64,000 nucleotides of DNA from Blastocatellia bacterium (GCA_963765495.1 CAVXWP010000001.1:1248715-1312714); one strand, 5' to 3'; shown: positions 9,121 to 22,868, counted from the stretch's first letter. Notes: generated from the sequence alone by a model not told the origin. Made by a program: numbers and translations.

Positions 9121-11208
<2,088 letters not shown>

Positions 11209-11217
11209 TAATCTCTC

Positions 11218-12489
11218 ATGCGTATTATTATTCTCAATCAATTCTTTTACCCTGATCATTCGGCCACGAGTCAGTTGATGACCGATCTGGCCGAAAACCT
11301 TGTCGAGCGTGGCGTAGATGTGACTGCGCTTGCCGGACGCGGGCGTTACAACGGCGGCGAACGACTCGCGCCGCGCGAGTCGCACAAGGGTATTCGCATC
11401 GAGCGGGCATGGGCTACGAGCTTTGGCAAGCAAAGCATGCTCGGCAGGCTTTCAGACTACCTGTCGTTTTATGTAGGGGCTTCGTGGAAGCTCATTCGCC
11501 TTCCGCGCCACGATATAGTTATGGCGCTTACGACCCCGCCCCTGATAGGACTTGTAGCTCTCATAATCGGTCGCCTTCGACGAATGCGAGTGGTTGCGCT
11601 CGTGCAGGATATCTATCCCGACATAGCCGTTGCGCTTGGGACGGTTCCGGCGCGAAACCCCGCGACAAAGCTTCTTGACGGGCTCAATCGGTTTATCCTG
11701 CGCGGGGCGGATCGAATAATCGTTCTGAGCGAATGCATGCGCGACCGCATAACGAAAAAGATCGAAGGCGCTCTTTCGCGCATAGATGTCATTCATAACT
11801 GGGCAGACGGGTCGAAGATCAGCCCGCTTGGAGAAGAAGAAAACGCCTTTGCCTCCGAGCATAACTCCGAGGGGAAGTTTGTCGTTCTATTCTCGGGGAA
11901 TTTCGGAAAGGTCAACGAGTTTCAGACCGTACTCGATGCCGCTCTCGTGTTGCGGGACCGCTCCGATATAGCTTTTCTCTTTATAGGCGAAGGTGCAAAA
12001 GCGAGCGAGATCAGACAGTTTTCCGACCGTCACAATCTCACAAATATCCGTCTGCTTCCTTATCAGCCCCGCGAGTCTTTGCGTCTCAGCTTAGCTGCGG
12101 GGCACGCCTCCCTTGTTACACTCGCGGATAATCTGGCCGGTCTCAGCGTGCCGAGCAAAACCTACGGCATTCTTGCGGCGGCCCGGCCCATACTCTTTGT
12201 CGGCGATAGCCGCAGCGAGATAGCGCGCCTCATTTTGGAAAACGACTGTGGTGCAGTAGTAGCCGCCCAACAGAGCGTCCGCCTCGCTCAAATCATATCG
12301 GATTGGGAATCTGATCGGACAAGACTCGAACGGATGGGCGCGGCGGCTCGTTCCTTGTTTGACCGCCGTTTCGACCGGCCCCACGCGGTTAGAGCTTATC
12401 TGGAATCCTTCGCAAAATGCATGGATGCCACCCCTCGTCGCCTGACGAGCGCTCTTGTAAAAAGAGCGGAGCATCGAGGAACTCTGTAA
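11218..12489 (+). CDS. Glycosyltransferase, GT4 family (WcaI-like)
   Basis: 423 aa. MRIIILNQFFYPDHSATSQL N-terminus and SVPSKTYGILAAARPILFVGD, typical of WcaI-type GT4 enzymes. Confidence 0.75.
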   Translation: MRIIILNQFFYPDHSATSQLMTDLAENLVERGVDVTALAGRGRYNGGERLAPRESHKGIRIERAWATSFGKQSMLGRLSDYLSFYVGASWKLIRLPRHDIVMALTTPPLIGLVALIIGRLRRMRVVALVQDIYPDIAVALGTVPARNPATKLLDGLNRFILRGADRIIVLSECMRDRITKKIEGALSRIDVIHNWADGSKISPLGEEENAFASEHNSEGKFVVLFSGNFGKVNEFQTVLDAALVLRDRSDIAFLFIGEGAKASEIRQFSDRHNLTNIRLLPYQPRESLRLSLAAGHASLVTLADNLAGLSVPSKTYGILAAARPILFVGDSRSEIARLILENDCGAVVAAQQSVRLAQIISDWESDRTRLERMGAAARSLFDRRFDRPHAVRAYLESFAKCMDATPRRLTSALVKRAEHRGTL

Positions 12490-12522
12490 AAGAGAATAGC
12501 CTTTCAAGAAAGGGTATAGAGT

Positions 12523-14109
12523 ATGTCATTTATATTCCTCACTGCCTTTGTTTGCTCGCTCCTGCTTTCGTTCGTCCTTACGCGCTATGTGCGTAACCTG
12601 GCGGTCGCTCGCGGGTGGGCGGCGACTCCTCCCATGCCGCATCACATTCATGCCAACCCCATACCCAGATTGGGAGGAGTGGGCATCTATCTCTCCGTCG
12701 CTTTGATTACGGGCCTGATGTTAGTTGGAGCGAAGCTGTTCAATTATGATATAGGCCCCATACAACATCGCGCGCTCTACATCCTTCTTGCGGGTACTAT
12801 AGTTTTTGTGCTTGGGTTTTACGATGATATTTATTCGGTTAGTCCTTACATAAAATTTGCGACACAGACTCTTGGCGCATTGGTGCTATATTTATCGGGG
12901 ATTCATGTGGGCGGTTTGCCGCCTCTTTTAGGCGGCTATGATCCGGGCTGGTGGTTGTCCCTGCCTCTAACAATTCTCTGGGTCTTATGGATTACAAATG
13001 CCTTCAATCTGATCGACGGGATTGACGGGCTCGCAGCCGGATCGGCGTTGTTTTCAACCCTGACAGTCTTTGTCATAGCATTGATTAGCGGCAACAACAT
13101 GACCTCGCTACTAGCCATCATTATGGGCGGCGCGATACTCGGTTTCCTTCGATTCAATTTCAACCCGGCGACTATTTTCTTAGGGGACTGCGGAAGCCTG
13201 TTTCTGGGATTTATGTTAAGCGCGCTCGCACTCGTCGGATCGCAGAAAGCCTCTACCGTGTTTGCCGTAGCCGTGCCGGTAGTCTCATTCGGACTGCCTG
13301 TGCTTGAAACGCTGATTTCCATCGCGCGTCGCTTCCTTAGCGGAAAGCCGCTGTTTTCGCCCGACCGCGATCACATACATCACAAGTTGCTTGATAGAGG
13401 TTTGTCTCAACGTCAGGTCGTGATAACCCTTTACGGGGTCTCAGCCATTTGCGGGTTATTGAGCCTTTTTCTTCTGGCTCCCGGCGGCGCTCCCGTGGCA
13501 GTAGTACTTTTCGTGCTGGGTGCGGGCATCTGGATAGGAGTCCAGCACCTCGGCTATCACGAGTTTTACGAACTCCGTAGAGTTGCCAATCGCACCATGA
13601 GCCAGAAGCGGATCATTGTAAACAACCTGTCTATCAGACGTGCAGTGGCAGAACTGCCGAAAGCTGAAAACCTCCTCGATCTTTGCTCAATACTTGAAAC
13701 TGCGTTTGAAAGCAATGATTTTGATAGCTTCCACCTCAGTCTCGCGCCCCGTGCCGCCGGGACACAGTTTATGACTGATGACCCTGAACTTACAGGTAGG
13801 CATAATTATATCTGGCACAAGCCAGCGGGAGGCAGAAGCATAGACACAGAATCCTTGCCCCACTGGACGCTTGTACTTCAATTGATGACAAAGGAAGGAT
13901 CGAACGGCTATTTCCTGCTCTACCGCGCCAGCAACGAACGCCCGCTACTGGTTGACGTAAATCTGCTTACATTAGAATTTCAAGTTGCCTTGTCTAAGGC
14001 GGTCGATCGCATAGTTGCTAAACCTAAGCGACAGCAGGTGATGAAGCAGTCGTCGCTGGTACAGGGGAAAGCCGTGGCCTTTGTGCCTGAAGTAATTAGC
14101 AAGTCATAA
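12523..14109 (+). CDS. Polyprenyl-phosphate sugar-1-phosphate transferase, MraY/WecA family, with a ~180-aa C-terminal extension
   Basis: 528 aa and multi-pass hydrophobic. NAFNLIDGIDGLAAG and FLGDCGSLFLGF motifs of glycosyltransferase family 4 (MraY/WecA). Residues ~345-528 are soluble with no motif I recognise. Confidence 0.8.
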   Translation: MSFIFLTAFVCSLLLSFVLTRYVRNLAVARGWAATPPMPHHIHANPIPRLGGVGIYLSVALITGLMLVGAKLFNYDIGPIQHRALYILLAGTIVFVLGFYDDIYSVSPYIKFATQTLGALVLYLSGIHVGGLPPLLGGYDPGWWLSLPLTILWVLWITNAFNLIDGIDGLAAGSALFSTLTVFVIALISGNNMTSLLAIIMGGAILGFLRFNFNPATIFLGDCGSLFLGFMLSALALVGSQKASTVFAVAVPVVSFGLPVLETLISIARRFLSGKPLFSPDRDHIHHKLLDRGLSQRQVVITLYGVSAICGLLSLFLLAPGGAPVAVVLFVLGAGIWIGVQHLGYHEFYELRRVANRTMSQKRIIVNNLSIRRAVAELPKAENLLDLCSILETAFESNDFDSFHLSLAPRAAGTQFMTDDPELTGRHNYIWHKPAGGRSIDTESLPHWTLVLQLMTKEGSNGYFLLYRASNERPLLVDVNLLTLEFQVALSKAVDRIVAKPKRQQVMKQSSLVQGKAVAFVPEVISKS

Positions 14110-14370: not shown

Positions 14371-16239
14371 TTACTCCCGCGCCTTGAGTCTCGCTTTGAG
14401 ATCGAAGTCCGGTGTCCTGATTGCGCCAATCAGATTCTGTGCTATGCACAAATCTCGAAACCGGCCATTCTGCTTTGCCATTAGGGAATTGCCGTTACCT
14501 GATTCGACCAAACGCCCTCCTTCAAGCACATAGACCATGTCCGCATTGAGAATAGTTGAAAGCCTGTGGGTTATTATCAGGATGGTTATGCGGCCATGAA
14601 GATTCTCTATCGCGCCTTGAATGCGTCTCTCATTTTCGGAATCAAGTGCGCTGGTCGCTTCATCCAGGATCAATAGCGAAGGCTTGCGTAGGATCGCTCT
14701 TGCTAAAGCCAGTCTTTGCCTTTCCCCGCCTGAAAGCCGCGCGCCGCGATCCCCCAGAATCGTTTCTATTCCCTCTGGCAGTGCCGAAACAAAATCTTCT
14801 GCTGCCGCAAGCCTTAAAGCCTTATTAATCTCTTCGTCGCTTGCCAGGGGGCAGGCCCAGACAAGATTAGCCCGCACAGTGTCGTGAAATAAGAAGGTGT
14901 CTTGCGTGACATAGCCTATCTGGTCCCGCCAGCTTGCAGCGCACCCGGCTCTGAGAGGCGTCCTGTCAATCAAGACGCAGCCTTCGGTAGGAGTCACCAG
15001 TCCAATGATAAGGTCTGCAATCGTACTCTTGCCCGCGCCCGAAGGCCCGACAATAGCGGTCGTCTGGCCTGCGGGGATATCCAAGCTGAGATCGCAGATT
15101 ATATCCTTCCCGTCTTCGTCATATCTGAATGATACATTTTCCAGTTGTAATGAATCAGTCAGAGAGACTCCCTGTGTCTCAGCTACCTTGTTTTCAGAAG
15201 CGGCTTCGCACCTTTCCTGCATCTTTTTTACCGTAGCAAACGAAGGCAGCAGGTTTATAAATTGCTGGTAGTTTTGTTGAATGTTTGAGAGTCTCGGCAT
15301 GATACGGGCAAATACGAACAGCAGCAAAAGCACTTCTGCGGTTGGGAGCGAGAGCACCTTGAAGGCGATGTAAACGATCAGGCTTAAGACAAGAACTGAC
15401 CCTATCTCGAACCATAATCTCAAATCGGCGTAATCGCGTGTTCCCTCAACGCTGACTTTCGTCACCCGTTCGATCAGCGAGGAAAACATTCTTCCAGTTC
15501 GCTCTTCGGCGTTATAGCTCTTTATCGTTTTTAATGCGCCCAGATGCTCTATTGTCGCGGCATACATCTCGTTGCTGATTCTTGAGTACTCCTCGCCGTT
15601 TACACGCGAAGCCCGAACCTTTCCCTTGAGCAGAAACAACAGCGCCGCCCCGCAGGCAAATACGAGTGCCGACATCGCTGTCGAAAGACGAACGGCCAGA
15701 GCGATATAGACCAGGGCTATCGTGGAATTAGATATCAGAAATAAGAGACTGTAGGTTGCCGAGTAAACGCGGTCGAGTTCTGATGTAAGAGCGTGAGTGA
15801 AATCCGAGGCCCGGCTTTTTGAAAGGAATATCCACCCGGCATTCATTATTGCCTCGTATATCTGCCGCCGCAGATGATCCACGAATTCGTAACCGAGCGC
15901 GAGACTCGAAATGGTTTGCCGACGGGACAACAGCGCGTGCGAGCAGGTTATCGCTATGTAGATAAAGAGAACCGTGATCAAAGTTGGGTGCAATCCGGTG
16001 GCCGCAAAAAAAGAAGATGCGATTTCGGCAAGGCGGCCTATGTTGCCTTGCTGCACATCCAGGCCCACGAGTCCCATCAGCGGCAACAGCAAAAGCAACC
16101 CTATGCCTTCGGTCAGGCCAACCAGGATCATCAGCCCCAGCACGATCAGCACCCTCCACCGAAGGGTATCGAGCAGGGTTGCCGTATAGGATCCAAGCAA
16201 ACCGCGCCCGTCCGCAGATTCAGCTTTCTTTTCCACCAT
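14371..16239 (-). CDS. ABC exporter (fused permease plus ATPase), probable lasso-peptide exporter (McjD-like)
   Basis: 622 aa. N-terminal half is transmembrane. Walker A GPSGAGKST, signature LSGGERQR, Walker B LLILDEATSALD. It is the last gene of the lasso cluster. Confidence 0.8.
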   Translation of the reverse strand: MVEKKAESADGRGLLGSYTATLLDTLRWRVLIVLGLMILVGLTEGIGLLLLLPLMGLVGLDVQQGNIGRLAEIASSFFAATGLHPTLITVLFIYIAITCSHALLSRRQTISSLALGYEFVDHLRRQIYEAIMNAGWIFLSKSRASDFTHALTSELDRVYSATYSLLFLISNSTIALVYIALAVRLSTAMSALVFACGAALLFLLKGKVRASRVNGEEYSRISNEMYAATIEHLGALKTIKSYNAEERTGRMFSSLIERVTKVSVEGTRDYADLRLWFEIGSVLVLSLIVYIAFKVLSLPTAEVLLLLFVFARIMPRLSNIQQNYQQFINLLPSFATVKKMQERCEAASENKVAETQGVSLTDSLQLENVSFRYDEDGKDIICDLSLDIPAGQTTAIVGPSGAGKSTIADLIIGLVTPTEGCVLIDRTPLRAGCAASWRDQIGYVTQDTFLFHDTVRANLVWACPLASDEEINKALRLAAAEDFVSALPEGIETILGDRGARLSGGERQRLALARAILRKPSLLILDEATSALDSENERRIQGAIENLHGRITILIITHRLSTILNADMVYVLEGGRLVESGNGNSLMAKQNGRFRDLCIAQNLIGAIRTPDFDLKARLKARE

Positions 16240-16255: not shown

Positions 16256-17449
16256 TCAGTCCTCGCGCCTTATTATTCTCTGCATGTATTTTGTGGCCAG
16301 CCTGAGGGGGCGCAAGAAATAATAGAGTAAAGAGATGGAAGAAGGCAGGCTCAATAGCTCCCATTCGAGAGGAGTTGGGACCGCATTGTCGAGGATCAAT
16401 CTGGCCTTATCGCGCAACCGCTTCATCGTTTTTATATAGAAAAGGTCTTCTTCAAAAAACCATGCCCGGCCATCTACCTCTCGAAAGAGCTTTGCGCCTG
16501 CCTCTGCCGCGAGTGGTTTTACGATTGGGTCGGTTTGAGTTTCCCTCAAGACATCGTCGGGGACATCGGCCTCAAGCATCTCATAGGCGAGCAGGATGCC
16601 GAGAAAGAGCATGCGTTCGCTGCCTGCGGCTCTTGCCTGTTTGATCATCTGCGCCCAGTTCATTTGTTCGTATGTCCGGGTGAGTTCGGCCAGATCGCAT
16701 ATCCAGTTCAAATGCTTCCAGGCGTGTTTTGCCCCGTGCACGCATAAGAGTAGAAACAAATCTTCGGAAGAGAGAGTTGGAACCCTGGCTCCATCCATAG
16801 AGATATGCTCGATCCGCTTCCAGTAATCCTCGGGGTCGGGCGCGAATGTGTACCTCGTAGGCACGATTGACCAGTGAAGATCAACCGTCGTCATCCAGTT
16901 CTCGGTTCCGAAAGCATGCTCGCATCGGAACTCGATGAGGGAAGCCTCCTGCTCGCGGGTAAGATCGAATTGCGGCTCGAACCCGGTTGAGCTTAATAGC
17001 TCGCTGATCTTTGGAACATCTGACTTGCGCACCAGAATGTCAAGATCGAGGAATTGCCTGAGCGCGATGTCTCCGTAAACGCTCCGGGCAAGGATCGGCC
17101 CCTTGAAGGGGATCGCCTCGATGCCGTGAGATTCGACAAGCTTCAGAAGTTTTATCAATTCGTTGGTCAGAAAAAGATTGTATCCTGTATTAAAATGAAA
17201 TTGCTCTCGAAGCCGGAGCAGAACCTGTTCGGGAATCTGCTCAGGGCAAATGGCTTTGAGGTGATAATACAGAAGCGGCATCACTGCGTGCCTGAAAGCC
17301 ATCGCCGACAGGTAATCCCAATCTATTTCTTGCTTGAGTAAAGACCTGATTCGATCAGCTTTTTCAGTCGTCATGCGCGCCCGCGTGCAGCAGATAAGAA
17401 TTTCAACTTCGGGGCGCGCGCCGATTGTAGTGATGCTTATAGATTTCAT
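16256..17449 (-). CDS. Nucleotidyltransferase-family protein (lasso-cluster associated)
   Basis: 397 aa. The LDLDILV motif and overall pattern match the uncharacterised nucleotidyltransferase family that accompanies HPr-kinase-like genes in lasso clusters. Confidence 0.6.
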   Translation of the reverse strand: MKSISITTIGARPEVEILICCTRARMTTEKADRIRSLLKQEIDWDYLSAMAFRHAVMPLLYYHLKAICPEQIPEQVLLRLREQFHFNTGYNLFLTNELIKLLKLVESHGIEAIPFKGPILARSVYGDIALRQFLDLDILVRKSDVPKISELLSSTGFEPQFDLTREQEASLIEFRCEHAFGTENWMTTVDLHWSIVPTRYTFAPDPEDYWKRIEHISMDGARVPTLSSEDLFLLLCVHGAKHAWKHLNWICDLAELTRTYEQMNWAQMIKQARAAGSERMLFLGILLAYEMLEADVPDDVLRETQTDPIVKPLAAEAGAKLFREVDGRAWFFEEDLFYIKTMKRLRDKARLILDNAVPTPLEWELLSLPSSISLLYYFLRPLRLATKYMQRIIRRED

Positions 17450-17549: not shown

Positions 17550-18698
17550 CTATCGGCTGTATTTTAGCGATAAATCGCCGATCCTGCTCAGGGCGTCGTG
17601 CGAAGTCTTGAAGCGAGCGGGAAATCTATCTGAAATCCGGCGCGCGATTTCGTCGAGTGAAGTTTGCCCATCCATCTCGGAGAGGATAAAGCGATCTATC
17701 TCGCCTTCTTCATCGAGCGCGGGCGCATAGTTTGAGGCGCGTTTGCGGAGCCGAGCCGGAGACAAAGGCGCGCCGAAAAAGGTTGATTGTTTGAAATCGG
17801 CTTTTACGGCCCGGGGATCATTCTGATCAAGGATGCGAGTGTTCCAGCGCCAGATGTAATCCTCTTCTACAAGATCGCCTTGCAGGATAAGAGAAACTCT
17901 GTCGTCAGCGGCAATAGCTACCGGTTCATACAAGGGAAATAAGGCATTGCCGTAGATGAGTTCAGGCTCGCCGGGGGCATTGGAAAAGCCCACCCCTTCT
18001 ATTAAAGAGGCGTCAAACCATGCGATTATTGCGTGCGCGGTTCCCGCCCGCTTCGCGGTCCAGACAAGTTCTGCGCTTACATCAGGGTTTTCTATGGTGT
18101 TGTAATCGAGCGTGGCCCAGCATTGCGGTTCAAGTAAGAGTTGTTCTGGCCTGACGCGACTCTTCCTCCAGGTATTGACCACGATTTTATGGGCCGCGCG
18201 CATATCGAGGCCGTAGTCATTGGCTCTCCAAGGGATTTTGTATTGATCGTATAAATCAGGCGCGTCAACAACAGAGGCCCACATCGTATCGCGCAGTGGA
18301 ATCAGCGTGCCGCCGGGCACGAGCAGCCTCTTGCGCGCATCAATTAACGAAGGAATGTGATTCTGAAAAAAAGAGAGTACGCCGCGCATATCAGAGACAA
18401 TAACATCAGCCTGTTCGGGCAAGGTTATTCGAGTTGATAAATCCTGGATAAACTCGATGCGTCCGTCGAGTTCGTTAGCAGCGGCGATCTCTTTAGCTAT
18501 TTGAATGGCATCATCCGGCTCAACCCCGTAGACGCGGCGAGCGCCGAATTGACAGGCGAGCATGGCGAAGATTCCAGTGCCTGTGCCTATGTCGAGCACC
18601 ACCGCGCCGGGTTTGATCGCCTGACGTAACGCCTGAACATAGCCGCTCATGCGCGCACTGTCGGTGATCATTTTTCCATAGGCGGATATAGTATACAT
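17550..18698 (-). CDS. Class-I SAM methyltransferase with PRMT-like architecture and a PqqD/RRE-like C-terminal tail
   Basis: 382 aa. [20 protein letters not shown] plus [28 protein letters not shown] parallels the PRMT1 N-terminus and motif I. The double-E loop position reads [14 protein letters not shown]. The tail [24 protein letters not shown] resembles PqqD. Confidence 0.6.
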   Translation of the reverse strand: [382 protein letters not shown]

Positions 18699-18699
18699 T

Positions 18700-19710
18700 T
18701 TAACCCTGTTCGGCCCCCGCGCAGATCAAAGCAGGTTGTGTCAAAGTCTGAAAATCATCAATCAATACATCGCATAGTTTTGACAGATACGCCGGGTTCG
18801 TATGAGGGATCGCTCGCCGCACCGGCACACCTTCAATAATACGATTCAGCAATTCGAACTCCTGAGCGCGCCTTATCTTATCCAAGAGATAATTTGTATA
18901 GGTGTTTGCGATTAAGCTGATCAGTGTTTCCCTGGAGGCTACAGCTTCGACGAAGGGAGCCCTCGGATCATCAATCCGGTTGGAGAGAATGTAAATCGCG
19001 GCAAGAGGGAGCGGGTGTCGCTGAAAATGGTAGCCTTCTTTTGTCAGATCCAGATACCGTTTATCCCAGGTGGGGGTCAGTCGCGGAAGGGCTTCGGACG
19101 AACCGTACAGGACATTGACCGATTCAGGCCATAGGCGAACGCGCGGATATGCTGGTTGAACCAGGAAGTGATCGCCCATATCGGAAAGCACAGTGACATC
19201 ATCCGATAAAACCGAATAACCCAGTTCTCCAAATGCCGCGGCAGTTGTTGATTTGCCCGCGCCCGCCGCGCCGAGCAAAACAATTGCCTGATCGCCTACA
19301 GCAATCGCGCTGGCGTGCATGCAGGTGACGCCGCGCAGGCGCAGCACGAATCCGAGCACCGGGCCGAGCAGGTAGGTAGCCGTATCTTCAAGCGTCAGAT
19401 CATCCGGCCATCTGGCCCATATCTCTGTTCCTGATTTATCAACGATAAATTCGGTCCCGTCGCCGTAAAGCAGGCGAAAATAACCTCCATCCACTTCCCA
19501 CACTCTTAAAGTCGGGCGGTCTTGCTCATCTCTACTCGTGGTGACATACCAAATCTGCTGAGAGACACAGGTCGGGTCGTCCATCCACGAAGGCATCAGT
19601 CCCAACCATACCCGCACATCCGTATGTGACACCCTCGCCTGAGCAATCGGCCCTGGTATAGGCAGGTTTGCACAGATTCTCAACCCATAGGCAAAATAAT
19701 GTAATGCCAT
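18700..19710 (-). CDS. HPr-kinase-related kinase (lasso-peptide kinase-like)
   Basis: 336 aa. MHASAIAVGDQAIVLLGAAGAGKSTTAAAF is the HprK C-terminal-domain P-loop pattern. Located directly downstream of the precursor gene. Confidence 0.7.
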   Translation of the reverse strand: MALHYFAYGLRICANLPIPGPIAQARVSHTDVRVWLGLMPSWMDDPTCVSQQIWYVTTSRDEQDRPTLRVWEVDGGYFRLLYGDGTEFIVDKSGTEIWARWPDDLTLEDTATYLLGPVLGFVLRLRGVTCMHASAIAVGDQAIVLLGAAGAGKSTTAAAFGELGYSVLSDDVTVLSDMGDHFLVQPAYPRVRLWPESVNVLYGSSEALPRLTPTWDKRYLDLTKEGYHFQRHPLPLAAIYILSNRIDDPRAPFVEAVASRETLISLIANTYTNYLLDKIRRAQEFELLNRIIEGVPVRRAIPHTNPAYLSKLCDVLIDDFQTLTQPALICAGAEQG

Positions 19711-19770: not shown

Positions 19771-19805
19771 GCACTAGATGGGGAGCGTCTTTTCCTATCT
19801 AGTGC
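19771..19805 (-). terminator. Stem-loop after the precursor gene (possible attenuator)
   Basis: 9-bp stem, gcactagat (19771-19779) with atctagtgc (19797-19805), and a 17-nt loop. No clear U-tract on the minus strand. Confidence 0.3.
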
Positions 19806-19845: not shown

Positions 19846-19995
19846 CTACGCTGTTTTAGTTTCCATGCCCAAACCGCCATCACCCGCTACCTTTGCCATG
19901 CCCACGTTCTGTGTTATCTCGCGGATGTTGCCATAGGCAACCATCTCGGGGCTTTTATATGCCTTTCCTGGTTGGTTCTCATCCTGTGACTTCAT
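19846..19995 (-). CDS. Lasso-peptide precursor (49 aa): MKSQDENQPGKAYKSPEMVAYGNIREITQNVGMAKVAGDGGLGMETKTA
   Basis: ATG at 19995 preceded by GAAGGAGAAATACT. The start lies 17 nt inside the 3' end of the cyclase gene. The leader fits Y-x2-P-x-(L/M)-x3-G-x5-T-x. Confidence 0.7.
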   Translation of the reverse strand: MKSQDENQPGKAYKSPEMVAYGNIREITQNVGMAKVAGDGGLGMETKTA

Positions 19996-21856
19996 AGTAT
20001 TTCTCCTTCTGTGCTTCGCATCTGGCCGACTCAATCGATTGTAGCCAGTTATTCAAACTGAGCGGGCGTAAATTAATCCATGCCTTGTAGGGGTCCTCTT
20101 CTCTAAATACATTGCCCATTGCTGCTCTGTCAACGTATTTATTCAATTCCGGCTCAGGAACGAACCAATCAACCCATTGTGCATCGGGTTGGCGTAGAGC
20201 TTCAACATAGGGGAAGCCGGCCAGCGGTGACTTCGGACGCCGCCGCACGGATTCAGGTAATACGTCACGCATTGAGGCGCGGAGTAATTCCTTTTTCACA
20301 CACCAGGGAACAGGCGGAAGCGATAGGAAATAATCTATCAACCGAAGATCAAGCAATGGATGCCGGTGCTCGATTGGAAAACTTGTTATGCCCGCATCGT
20401 GGCTCTCTAAAAGGCTCGACCAGAGGGCCGTTGATGTTAAGACTCTATAGGCATAAGGGCGGACAGGATGGTTCGACGGCGGATAGGAACTCAGTTGTTG
20501 CCATCGAGTAGCCAGATCTAATTGTTTCGCAAGAGCCTGATTTATCCAGACTGGATATGTCGGCTCTAGCTGCGGGGTTTGCCTCCCCATCAAACGACCG
20601 AGCTTGTCTCGAAAGCCGAGCGGTATAATTCTGCGCTGGGAAATGGCGTACCTGGCTGTGTTTATCACAAGTCGTCCGAATTGCCTGTCTTTGAGTAAAG
20701 ATCGAAGGTAGGGCTTTGGTGACTCGTTCAGAACCGTATCCCCGTCCCACCCCGTCAGCCCGACACGGCTATGAGCCGCCTGTAGTTTTGATTGATCGAC
20801 AGATATCGCGGGTTGCGGATCATTGACAGGTTCAGGGCGGCGAAATTCGGGGTTGTCCCAGTTTTCATATAGCTTGTAGTCGTCTCCTGCGATGTAATCT
20901 ATAAGGATGCCCAGTCTTTCTGCCGCCAGTCCTGAGTAGTATCGCTCTTCGTCGGGAATCACTCTGTCATAGACTACTGCATAGGCTCGCAGGTCATAGC
21001 AGGCGGACTGCTCCGAAAGCAGTTTAACGGCTGTTGCTGCTATAGCCGTTGAGTCCAGCCCGCCACTCATTGAAACGCTGACCCGGTCAGTCCGCAGCCG
21101 ATCATTTACCGCTGTTTGCAATAGCTCTCTAAAATGCTCGACATAATCATTTGCGCGGCGGTATCGAATGCGGCTGTCTGCGGGCAAAGCCCAATATCGC
21201 TTCAATCGTTGGGTTCCATCCGCCCACGTTAAACAGTGTGCGGGTGGCAGTCGCTGAATGTCGGCAAAGGTCGTCGTGGATGGCTCCTGGTTAGAGTCAA
21301 ACAGCAGAAAATCTGCGATGGCTAAATCATTCAATTCATCCGAAACCGCCGGGTGCATTCGCACGCAGTTCAACGTGTTGCTGAATATCAGATGACCGCG
21401 CACCTGAGCGTGATAAAAGGGCTTTACCCCGAAATGATCGCGTGCGCAAAACAGGCTCCGCTTTCGGCTGTCCCAGATGGCAAAGGCGAAATCGCCTATA
21501 AGATGCTCGACACACTCTTCGCCCCAGACCTCGTAGGCCCGCAAAATAAGCTCTACGTCGGTTACTCCCTCAAGCTTTATTGATCCTTTGGATTCCAGTT
21601 TCCCGATCAATTCCGAGCGGCCATCTACTCGCGCATCCGCCGTTATCCAGACTCCCCCGTCCAGACTGAATGGCTGATGCTCGCGCTCGGATTCAAACGT
21701 AGTCCGCAGCATCGTGTGGCCGAAGCCTATATTGCCGTCAATCCAGATTTCCTGAGCGTCGGGGCCGCGATAGGCCATAAACCCCGTCATCCGCCGCAAC
21801 AGTTGTCTGTCAACAGGTGCGCCGTCCAGGTTGATGATGCCAAGAATGCCGCTCAT
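19979..21856 (-). CDS. Lasso-peptide macrolactam synthetase (asparagine-synthetase-like, C protein)
   Basis: 625 aa. N-terminus is MSGILGI (Ser replaces the AsnB catalytic Cys2). PP-loop SMSGGLDS. ATGA overlap with the B2 gene. Confidence 0.85.
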   Translation of the reverse strand: MSGILGIINLDGAPVDRQLLRRMTGFMAYRGPDAQEIWIDGNIGFGHTMLRTTFESEREHQPFSLDGGVWITADARVDGRSELIGKLESKGSIKLEGVTDVELILRAYEVWGEECVEHLIGDFAFAIWDSRKRSLFCARDHFGVKPFYHAQVRGHLIFSNTLNCVRMHPAVSDELNDLAIADFLLFDSNQEPSTTTFADIQRLPPAHCLTWADGTQRLKRYWALPADSRIRYRRANDYVEHFRELLQTAVNDRLRTDRVSVSMSGGLDSTAIAATAVKLLSEQSACYDLRAYAVVYDRVIPDEERYYSGLAAERLGILIDYIAGDDYKLYENWDNPEFRRPEPVNDPQPAISVDQSKLQAAHSRVGLTGWDGDTVLNESPKPYLRSLLKDRQFGRLVINTARYAISQRRIIPLGFRDKLGRLMGRQTPQLEPTYPVWINQALAKQLDLATRWQQLSSYPPSNHPVRPYAYRVLTSTALWSSLLESHDAGITSFPIEHRHPLLDLRLIDYFLSLPPVPWCVKKELLRASMRDVLPESVRRRPKSPLAGFPYVEALRQPDAQWVDWFVPEPELNKYVDRAAMGNVFREEDPYKAWINLRPLSLNNWLQSIESARCEAQKEKYYEVTG

Positions 21857-22323
21857 TTGTCTCTTGCCTCTGCCGATGCTATGTCGCGGTCGAATGGAGA
21901 AAAACGCATTTCAACATCCTGGCTGTCGTTTAGAGCAAGGTCCATAAACTCAACCCAGGCATGAGCCTCCATCCGCCCCGCCTCTTTGCGTGCGCCGAAG
22001 CGCAGGCGGCTTTCAATCCGCCGCCGTCGCAGTAGCCACCATAAAATCAGGGATTCTTGCAAACAATTAGCGCGATACGGCCCCCACCGGGAAGCGATTC
22101 TCACTATCCTTGCCACCATCCGGGCTTTCTCGATCAATTTCTCGTTTTGTTCCTGCGGGATTTTTTTATCAACGGGCGATAAACGCAATAGAGCAGATTG
22201 CCAGCGATTGAATCCCACCACTCGCAACGCAGCGCCTGTGAGTGGAAACATAGGGAGAGCCTGCGCAAGCAATCGCCACTCTGGCAATGAAAGCTGCCGA
22301 GCCTTTTGCCACTTACCCGGCAT
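21853..22323 (-). CDS. Lasso-peptide leader protease B2 (transglutaminase-like Cys protease)
   Basis: 156 aa. RANCLQESL (Cys) and EAHAWVEF (His) match the B2 family pattern. Overlaps the B1 gene by 11 nt. Confidence 0.8.
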   Translation of the reverse strand: MPGKWQKARQLSLPEWRLLAQALPMFPLTGAALRVVGFNRWQSALLRLSPVDKKIPQEQNEKLIEKARMVARIVRIASRWGPYRANCLQESLILWWLLRRRRIESRLRFGARKEAGRMEAHAWVEFMDLALNDSQDVEMRFSPFDRDIASAEARDK

Positions 22324-22594
22324 TTATCTCCACTAATCCCTGTTCCGTCAATCTGCCGATCAGGTCCATTAAATCCTGTCGCAGCAGTTGCTCATCCACA
22401 TCATATTCATCAAGTAAAATCTCGTAAGCCGCCTGAATGGAATCGCTTGTTGTGAGAAGCGCCCACATGCGAGTCCCTATCTCGTCAAGGCCAAAGTAGC
22501 GCTCGCTTATCAAATTGAGAATGACCGATTCGCCGCCAACCGTGGAGACCAATACATCTGATGGCACTAATACACGTTTCTGAAATGCTTTCAT
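22313..22594 (-). CDS. PqqD-family RiPP recognition element (lasso B1)
   Basis: Start moved to the ATG at 22594 (MKAFQKRVLVPSD...), preceded by AGAGGAATC. ESVILNLISERYFGLDEIGTRMWALL...AYEILLDEYDVD...LMDLIGRLTEQGLV is the PqqD pattern. Confidence 0.8.
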   Translation of the reverse strand: MKAFQKRVLVPSDVLVSTVGGESVILNLISERYFGLDEIGTRMWALLTTSDSIQAAYEILLDEYDVDEQLLRQDLMDLIGRLTEQGLVEINAG

Positions 22595-22868
22595 GATTCC
22601 TCTTGCGAACACTCAACTTCCCTGTATTTTGGATTTGCCTGAATTGTGGGCTATCCCCTGCACCCTTTGAATGATGATATCTTGCCATCGTTCCTAATGA
22701 AAAGGCAAATCAAGTTTGAGGCTATTGCTCACAAGAACCTTTTTCGTTGCTTTACTTACATAGAATTTCGGCCAAGATTTGGTGCTCGCCTGTACGCTAC
22801 GTAAAGGAATCTAAAGAGCCGGATACAAACCGGCTAAGGCGCGGCACGGCTTTAGTAAAAACAAGAGT

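Follow-up and report, generated by a model that had tools for sequence, protein, structure and literature searches.

A lasso precursor gene in a Blastocatellia bacterium and its family, in which leader register and ring-size rule disagree

Kinase-tailored lasso peptides and the Blastocatellia cluster

Paeninodin-like lasso clusters are described as typically carrying HprK-like kinases and NTP transferases for secondary tailoring (PMC13381572). Systems of this type (paeninodin; ThcoK, SyanK) share the split B1/B2 proteins, the cyclase, an HPr-kinase-like enzyme and an ABC exporter with a locus that we analysed in a 64,000-nucleotide stretch of DNA from a Blastocatellia bacterium (the window). 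Their kinase acts on the precursor and the modification lies near the C-terminus, a likeness to what we propose for the window. The paeninodin type is phosphorylated on a C-terminal Ser, whereas the window precursor ends in Ala and its family conserves a Thr after Lys or Arg. The window also differs in that the precursor gene follows and overlaps the cyclase gene, in the presence of a PRMT-fold methyltransferase, and in the acceptor Asp, which stands at 9 or 10 in the window family, unlike the fixed position of the paeninodin type. Paeninodin itself has an Ala1-Asp9 ring and a leader Tyr at -15.

Pseudomycoidin (psm cluster of Bacillus pseudomycoides) resembles the window cluster in that a kinase and an NTP_transf_5-type enzyme put a phosphate and a hexose on the tail, the hexose being attached to the phosphate by PsmN-type enzymes (PMC9266682). 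Its tail, like that of the window precursor, is without a strong plug, and its authors proposed that bulky C-terminal modifications keep the weakly plugged lasso threaded. Unlike the window peptide, it comes from a Firmicute, is modified at the terminal residue, has no methyltransferase and can be made without B1/B2. The bsf cluster of Bradymonas sediminis contains A, B1, B2, C, D, K and N genes, as the window does, and no methyltransferase. BsfA is a documented exception to one 'universal' leader rule (Ile replaces Thr at -2); it has a normal Gly1-Asp8 ring and is phosphorylated on Ser3, in the ring region.

A 10-residue ring has been engineered in fusilassin/fuscanodin of Thermobifida fusca, whose native ring is Trp1-Glu9 (9 residues). 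This system is actinobacterial and, unlike the window, has aromatic plugs and no tailoring enzymes. The leader register of its precursor FusA (Y-17, P-14, L-12, G-8, T-2) is the same as that in the window. The window cluster works like the kinase-tailored group of paeninodin, pseudomycoidin and Bsf, and its leader has the register of the well-studied B1/B2 systems. New with respect to that group are the acceptor position, the K-T motif, the PRMT-fold enzyme, the gene order and the NCBIfam scores below cut-off.

The cluster consists of eight co-directional genes, all on the minus strand, in the order B1-B2-C-A-K-M-N-D. B1 (22313-22612, 99 aa) is a PqqD-like RiPP recognition element (Pfam PqqD, E = 6e-14) that scores 55.7 bits against NCBIfam lasso_PqqD_Bac, under the cut-off of 80. 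B2 (21853-22323, 156 aa) is a transglutaminase-like leader peptidase (lasso_biosyn_B2, 84.5 bits with a cut-off of 33; Transglut_core3, E = 1e-21) with a single Cys (C87) and a single His (H121). The third gene, C (19979-21856, 625 aa), encodes an Asn-synthetase-like lasso cyclase (Pfam Asn_synthase and GATase_6/7). It matches NCBIfam NF033535 (lass_lactam_cya) with 410 bits in two stretches, under the cut-off of 525, and a protein search gave 6215 homologues at E<=1e-30, the best non-self matches being 54-64% identical. At the far end of the cluster, D (14371-16239, 622 aa) encodes an ABC exporter with fused permease and ATPase (Pfam ABC_membrane and ABC_tran), for which the best NCBIfam matches are HepA/MsbA-like and all under their cut-offs.

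The precursor gene and its family

The precursor gene A (19846-19995, minus strand) runs from an ATG at 19995-19993 to a TAG at 19848-19846 and encodes 49 aa plus stop (MKSQDENQPGKAYKSPEMVAYGNIREITQNVGMAKVAGDGGLGMETKTA); it was assigned from the ORF read, its translation and the leader motif in relatives. The Shine-Dalgarno-like sequence GAAGGAG (20003-20009, minus strand) lies within the last codons of the cyclase gene, 7 nt 5' of the precursor ATG, and the cyclase ORF stops at 19979, which leaves a 17-nt overlap. Translation of the precursor would be coupled to the end of the cyclase gene through this overlap with its internal Shine-Dalgarno. The ORF, translation and coordinates given in an earlier note on this DNA were all exact on re-reading, and its ribosome-binding site, overlap and suggestion of translational coupling hold. 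A promoter scan found fewer sites than in shuffled sequence.

Scanning one genome per species with the cyclase alignment, we located 80 related loci, mainly in Acidobacteriota, with others in filamentous cyanobacteria and scattered across other phyla. The gene order in the family is B1-B2-C-A-K-(M)-(N)-(D), with B1-B2-C-A-K conserved; of the 80 loci, some of which are truncated, 78 have K, 65 have B1 upstream of the cyclase, 54 have M and 46 have N. At least one small ORF with the leader motif occurs in each of these cyclase-located loci (80/80). Of 83 precursor starts, 40 overlap the cyclase stop and 33 more lie within 50 nt of it (73 in total). A Shine-Dalgarno-like motif precedes most family starts, and the commonest start is 12 codons ahead of the leader Tyr, as in the window precursor. 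The 17-nt overlap is ordinary for the family and not peculiar to the window.

Because a motif-bearing ORF occurs in 80/80 loci, mostly next to the cyclase stop, and the gene order is kept, the small ORF is a true precursor gene, conserved and in its expected place. It adjoins the B1, B2 and C genes, all directly upstream on the same strand, and is the sole motif-bearing ORF in the 64-kb window. The earlier identification of the ORF as a lasso precursor, which was to be dropped if homologous clusters kept their precursor elsewhere or did not conserve it, is thus upheld. The predicted core (NVGMAKVAGDGGLGMETKTA) is free of Cys. Judged from the cluster and the core, the product is probably a class II lasso peptide (no cysteines) of a large, apparently uncharacterised family. 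We found no characterised member in the open literature, that on cyanobacteria and Acidobacteriota included; subscription journals lay largely outside this search.

A protein search with the 49-aa precursor as query returned only the self-match. The precursor family is too divergent for word-based seeding, so the relatives had to be reached via the cyclase. A metagenome scan with the cyclase contributed about a dozen further precursors; most of its contigs, the closest (L088 at 76%, L090 at 72%) among them, end before the precursor. The curated models that score best for the window precursor and cyclase are NCBIfam NF033528, NF033535 and NF033521, and the window scores are under their cut-offs. 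The precursor reaches 23.6 bits with NF033528 (lasso_cyano; cut-off 33) and 15.9 bits with NF033521 (lasso_leader_L3; cut-off 19), a cut-off that some relatives pass. All ten family precursors compared with lasso_cyano match it below threshold, the nine relatives at 22.8-30 bits against the cut-off of 33. Being below the lasso_leader_L3 cut-off, the window precursor would not get named automatically.

Leader register, acceptor position and ring size

The predicted leader comprises M1-Q29 (19909-19995, minus strand), in the register that experiments established for the binding of B1 and the cut by B2 (PMC10368454). Y-17, P-14 and L-12 are needed for B1 binding, and cleavage of BsfA was predicted in this way and confirmed by in vitro digestion with B1/B2 (PMC10368454). 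BsfA keeps the Y-17/P-14/L-12 ruler despite Ile instead of Thr at -2 (PMC10368454). In the window precursor the anchors are Y13 (-17), P16 (-14), M18 (-12), G22 (-8) and T28 (-2; codon 19912-19914), that is, a YxxPxL at -17 to -12 with Met for Leu and a Thr at -2, where lasso precursors rarely have Ile or Val instead; this makes N30 residue 1. The leader motif had been said to fit exactly; this is right for the spacing and the other residues, while at -12 the window has Met and not the usual Leu.

Leader spacing is rigid in 85/85 unique family cores, with the columns Y(-17), P(-14), L(-12), Y(-9), G(-8), I/V(-6), L/I(-3), T(-2) and Q/R/K(-1). Position -12 is Leu in 71/85 members and Met in the window precursor alone. 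When the Thr was not required (relaxed pattern), the Thr column was still invariant in 100 unique precursors; the exceptions were noise, one copy that is apparently decayed and one member whose spacing is shorter by one residue. Such absolute invariance is expected if the Thr is the residue that B2 reads (the S2 determinant). The first column after T-x is T, A, S, N or G in 84% of cores and never Pro. Asn takes this place in 13/85, so that an Asn at core position 1, which the earlier note had called unusual, is an ordinary family residue. In seven of the 85 cores, cyanobacterial ones included, T-x is followed by Gly and the Asp is at 9, with the same leader and homologous B1/B2 (for example ...ELTQ|GTTGNSGND); in the Thr(-2) register these members read as textbook Gly1-Asp9 cores. 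Together, the leader ruler and the invariant Thr moderately favour cleavage between Q29 and N30 over sites further downstream.

The predicted core extends from N30 to A49 (19849-19908, minus strand), bounded by the T-x register and recognised by the invariant Asp and the C-terminal [KR][TS]. Its acceptor D39 (codon 19879-19881) comes tenth after T28-Q29. E45, the one further acidic residue of the core, is excluded as ring acceptor, as it would be at position 16. Described acceptors are an Asp or Glu at core position 7, 8 or 9; in the register set by the leader D39 is at 10, and it falls within this range solely if cleavage is moved to V31 (position 9) or G32 (position 8). The incompatibility of leader register and 7-9 ring rule had been pointed out before and is real, and it is shared by 38/85 family cores. 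Of the candidate cores proposed at that time, N30 with D39 at 10 and the one starting at G32 stand; V31 (Thr at -3, ring of 9) had been omitted.

Family cores consist of a variable stretch after T-x and then an invariant Asp, never Glu, that is usually followed by Gly or Asn. Among 85 unique cores, the Asp is at position 9 after T-x in 45, at 10 in 35, at 11 in three and at 8 in two, so that about 45% (38/85) have it at 10 or 11. More distant relatives, with cyclases 34-37% identical, have Asp or Glu at 8. With Thr at -2 the rings comprise 8-11 residues and 47/85 cores are inside 7-9; with Thr at -3 they comprise 7-10 (82/85 inside), and with Thr at -4, 6-9 (83/85 inside). No single cleavage register fits all family members into rings of 7-9. 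The comparison of homologues that the earlier note had proposed thus found both Thr and Asp invariant and the position of the Asp variable, and the conflict extends to the whole family.

On a neighbour-joining tree of the cyclases (64 tips) the Asp position switches 18 times or more, and for one third of the cyclases the nearest neighbour has a different Asp position. Mixed positions occur even within clusters that have one cyclase (L013 with 10, 9 and 9; L024 with 9 and 11; L029 with 10 and 9; L077 with 11 and 10). The two main types can share their N-terminal triplet, as in NVGSKGAVD (L046, Asp at 9) and NVGMAKVAGD (window), which places the additional residue within the ring. Ring length is clearly plastic within the family.

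A ring of 7-9 residues is part of every lasso peptide definition, and LassoPred builds rings of 7, 8 or 9 only. All structurally characterised natural lasso peptides have 7-, 8- or 9-residue rings (papers of 2020-2022 and a review of June 2026), and our search of the open literature, which subscription journals lay largely outside, gave no natural ring of 10. To our knowledge, genome-mining tools search for acceptors at 7-9 only, so that Asp-10 precursors would not be picked for study. With the tools assuming rings of 7-9, a family in which about 45% have the Asp further out would be largely overlooked. The enzymes of fusilassin accept rings of 7-10 residues, the unnatural 10 included, as well as substitutions at core position 1, and those of caulosegnin natively form rings of both 8 and 9. 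The ring-size rule is softer than the rule of the leader register. Our best reading, held with moderate confidence, is that the precursor is cut after Q29 and that N30 and D39 close a ring of 10 residues. The family probably makes 10-residue rings, so far unseen in nature. If so, the limits of the fold widen and the question becomes how a loose ring stays threaded.

The main competing explanation, which we regard as possible though on balance improbable, is that B2 cuts one or two residues further downstream, giving a V31-D39 ring of 9 (Thr at -3) or a G32-D39 ring of 8 (Thr at -4). This would agree with a 7-9 rule that is so far without natural exception and would bring 82 or 83 of the 85 cores inside it. 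Gly is the commonest residue of the third column (33/85, 39%), and G32 would be a conventional residue 1. Columns 1-3 after T-x are also slightly more conserved than columns 4-8 (entropy 2.9-3.2 vs 3.2-3.9 bits), which would fit an extension of the leader, and a residue other than Thr at -2 is known in nature from BsfA. Against this, characterised lasso precursors have no residues added between T-x and core, even BsfA with its Ile(-2) retains the Y-17/P-14/L-12 ruler, which here indicates N30, and the Thr is invariant in 100 unique precursors, as for an S2 determinant. With Thr at -4, the Asp-8 members (L025 and L066, and the distant L091 and L094) would be left with rings of 6, which are impossible, and the four members with Pro in the third column would start with Pro. 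A Thr at -3 would mean a beta-branched first residue (Val or Ile) in 39% of members and would leave three members with rings of 10; no one register rescues all members. If cleavage is indeed shifted, the 'Thr at -2' and 'Tyr at -17' rulers for calling cores fail for the whole family, and the annotation of precursors changes with either outcome. A further register, built after the Ile/Val(-2) exception, takes V31 as the -2 residue and starts the core at M33 (a 7-residue ring); it was rejected, as it turns all Asp-9 members into 6-residue rings and breaks the Y-17 ruler.

Tail, tailoring enzymes and the downstream hairpin

In the preferred reading, with the cut after Q29, B1 would bind Y13-x2-P16-x-M18, and B2 would seat T28 in its S2 pocket and cut between Q29 and N30. 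The cyclase would then link the alpha-amine of N30 to the side chain of D39. Since D39 is the sole acidic residue within reach, this would give a macrolactam of 10, one above any described natural lasso peptide. An aromatic or Arg plug is absent from the 10-residue tail (GGLGMETKTA). Tails in the family are Gly-rich and usually without aromatics, and [KR][TS] is their sole conserved feature; the motif lies within the last six residues, followed by 0-4 residues, in 77/85 cores. In the window it is K47-T48-A49 (K47-T48 codons, 19852-19857). The C-terminal Ser typical of kinase-tailored lassos is replaced by an Ala terminus here and by [KR][TS] plus 0-4 residues in the family.

K47-T48 is probably the tailoring site. 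The HPr-kinase-like enzyme K (18700-19710, minus strand, 336 aa; weak matches to Pfam Hpr_kinase_C and NCBIfam HprK_rel_A) would phosphorylate T48. Its catalytic motif H...GxxGxGKS...DD is intact (H132, G147, G150, G152, K153, S154, D170, D171) and has the spacing of the BsfK catalytic motif, which was tested by mutagenesis (PMC10368454). N (16256-17449, minus strand, 397 aa; Pfam PF14907, E = 1e-67) is a protein of the NTP_transf_5 nucleotidyltransferase family, to which PsmN (PMC9266682) and BsfN (PMC10368454) of kinase-type lasso clusters belong; it may decorate T48 further. The modified K47-T48 pair would hold the tail in the enlarged ring.

The gene M (17550-18698, minus strand) encodes a PRMT-fold methyltransferase of 382 aa (Pfam PrmA and PRMT_C; PDB PRMT1, E = 1e-29) that aligns with PRMT1 across the catalytic and barrel domains and may methylate K47. 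In place of the two Glu residues of the PRMT double-E loop it has S-D103...Q112. Among 54 family methyltransferases, the first of these positions is Asp in 53 and the second is variably Q, E or G. The window core has no Arg, and the PRMT-fold enzyme plausibly methylates the conserved Lys. A C-terminal tail of about 100 aa, considered as a possible RRE, has a weak Pfam PqqD match (E = 0.065), and BLASTP of it against B1 gave nothing. Lasso methyltransferases known so far are of two kinds, C-terminal O-methyltransferases and PIMT-like enzymes (PMC9266682), and the enzyme differs from both.

The presence of the methyltransferase co-varies with the core. Asp-10 precursors are confined to clusters that carry it (34 vs 0; Fisher p = 1.5e-5, uncorrected for phylogeny), and clusters without it have the Asp at 9 (16), 8 (1) or 11 (1). 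The motif residue is Lys or Arg in 51 and 6 cases with the methyltransferase vs 4 and 11 without (p = 3.8e-6, uncorrected for phylogeny), and the clusters without it derive from perhaps five or six lineages. This co-variation points to a lasso tailoring reaction that has not been described. The association with Asp-10 hints at a tailored C-terminal Lys-Thr as the plug, and we hypothesise that methyl-Lys beside a decorated phospho-Thr is a lock that permits the ring to grow to 10. A fuller reading, in which all parts are taken jointly, is offered tentatively: the family would natively make 10- and occasionally 11-residue rings with one promiscuous cyclase per cluster, and an enzymatic Lys-Thr plug would replace the aromatics, the Thr being phosphorylated and possibly glycosylated or nucleotidylated and the Lys methylated by a PRMT-fold enzyme without the arginine-binding double-E loop.

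The same cut after Q29 and the same N30-D39 ring could also yield a branched-cyclic, unthreaded or transiently threaded lariat, which we consider unlikely; the family would then make tailored lariats and not true lassos, a ring of 10 being too wide to trap such a tail. Most steric locks of lasso peptides are bulky aromatic residues, the window tail, without aromatic or Arg plug, has nothing bulky that could obviously lock a 10-residue ring, and in the absence of its kinase and nucleotidyltransferase pseudomycoidin is produced as a branched cycle. On the other hand, the cyclase is 45-64% identical to enzymes beside Asp-9 precursors, several of them canonical Gly1-Asp9, and the conserved K-T motif with three tailoring enzymes is a plausible plug; threading itself is not to be judged from a sequence. 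That the small ORF is a decayed or non-functional copy, unprocessable through the extra ring residue, is highly improbable: its Met at -12 (the sole case in the family), its scores under the NCBIfam cut-offs and the second, apparently decayed precursor-like ORF of the relative L011 would agree with decay, but it is the sole precursor of an otherwise intact eight-gene cluster, its start codon, Shine-Dalgarno, leader anchors, Asp with the family-commonest Gly-Gly and K-T motif are all intact, and Asp is at 10 in 35/85 cores, including those of L121, with the closest cyclase, and L027, with the most similar core (NIGAAGKVADGGVAPTDKTA).

The 135-nt gap between the precursor and kinase genes contains a hairpin (GCACUAGAU...AUCUAGUGC; 19771-19805, minus strand) with a 9-bp stem (19805-19797/19779-19771) and a 17-nt loop in the minimum-free-energy fold. 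It had been noted before, and its presence is confirmed by the fold; it is not conserved in relatives. The best 45-nt hairpin has -15.2 kcal/mol (z = -2.9 vs shuffles), and the whole intergenic stretch (138 nt folded) is marginal (z = -1.8). The equivalent regions of relatives have no excess structure (median z about 0; 11% with z < -2), no T-run follows the stem and a terminator scan reports nothing at the site, so that a conserved attenuator is ruled out. In this organism the hairpin may adjust how far transcription reads through into K-M-N-D, or make the precursor transcript more stable.

Methyltransferase presence and precursor type

Across the 80 genome loci related through their cyclase (L001-L080), the precursor type co-varies with the presence of the PRMT-fold methyltransferase gene, which in the window lies at 17550-18698 (minus strand). 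An Asp at position 10, counted from the first residue after the leader Thr-x, is confined to methyltransferase-bearing clusters (34 versus 0, p=1.5e-5), and the first residue of the [KR][TS] motif close to the end of the core is Lys or Arg in 51 and 6 cases with the methyltransferase and in 4 and 11 cases without it (p=3.8e-6); both p values ignore phylogeny.

The window methyltransferase aligns with PRMT1 (E=1e-29), and its double-E loop (residues 102-114) reads S-D-M-R-G-V-L-S-F-F-Q-N-H. Asp takes the place of the first Glu, a substitution shared by 53 of 54 relatives, and Gln that of the second, at a position that is variable among relatives (Q, E, or G). Because the window core peptide lacks Arg, arginine is probably not the substrate of this enzyme. 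The protein continues for about 100 amino acids past the PRMT barrel in a C-terminal tail (17550-17860, minus strand). The tail has a weak match to PqqD (E=0.065, 14 bits) and none to the PqqD-like recognition element B1 by BLASTP; it could be a degenerate leader-recognition element.

Multi-precursor clusters and unusual relatives

Many related clusters encode two to three precursors per single cyclase (L013, L024, L029, L077, L023, L026, L061, L076, L084, and L085), and in several of these the copies within one cluster differ in Asp position, for example 10, 9, and 9 in L013 and 9 and 11 in L024. At approximately 8.2-8.4 kb, L011 also contains a second precursor-like ORF (YQSPRLRVYGDIRELPR...), in which Pro replaces the invariant Thr and the tail is unrelated; it probably represents a copy that has decayed or been frameshifted.

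The closest full-length cyclase to that of the window on the tree is found in L121, a JGI metagenome contig, whose core TVGRGSPVADNGVGSMDKTQ likewise has Asp at position 10. This cluster has a 330-amino acid gene without Pfam match between the leader peptidase gene B2 and the cyclase gene, and a 2OG-Fe(II) oxygenase gene after the precursor gene; no downstream kinase/methyltransferase module was found in the remainder of the contig. L105 and L106 are distant metagenome relatives (cyclase approximately 37% identical). Their acceptor is Glu at position 8 and their tails carry two Cys (TGTGNTNELVMYCPGTWGEARKC), which suggests a disulfide-bearing branch sharing the same leader type.

Annotation scores and surroundings of the cluster

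The window cyclase (19979-21856, minus strand) scores under the NCBIfam curated cut-off (410 versus 525), as does the precursor (19846-19995, minus strand; 23.6 versus 33 and 15.9 versus 19). The window precursor would probably remain unnamed in automatic annotation. The precursors of some relatives pass the lasso_leader_L3 cut-off.

The hairpin 3' of the precursor gene (19771-19805, minus strand) is locally significant in the window (z = -2.9), and the equivalent region of 87 relatives was no more structured than expected (median z 0, with 11% having z < -2).

Just beyond the cluster, four ORFs are encoded on the opposite strand (9121-14109, plus strand). By eye only, they resemble a sugar-nucleotide and glycosyltransferase-like set, with likenesses to GDP-mannose 4,6-dehydratase, an NAD-dependent epimerase/reductase, a group-1 glycosyltransferase, and a WecA/MraY-type phosphotransferase.
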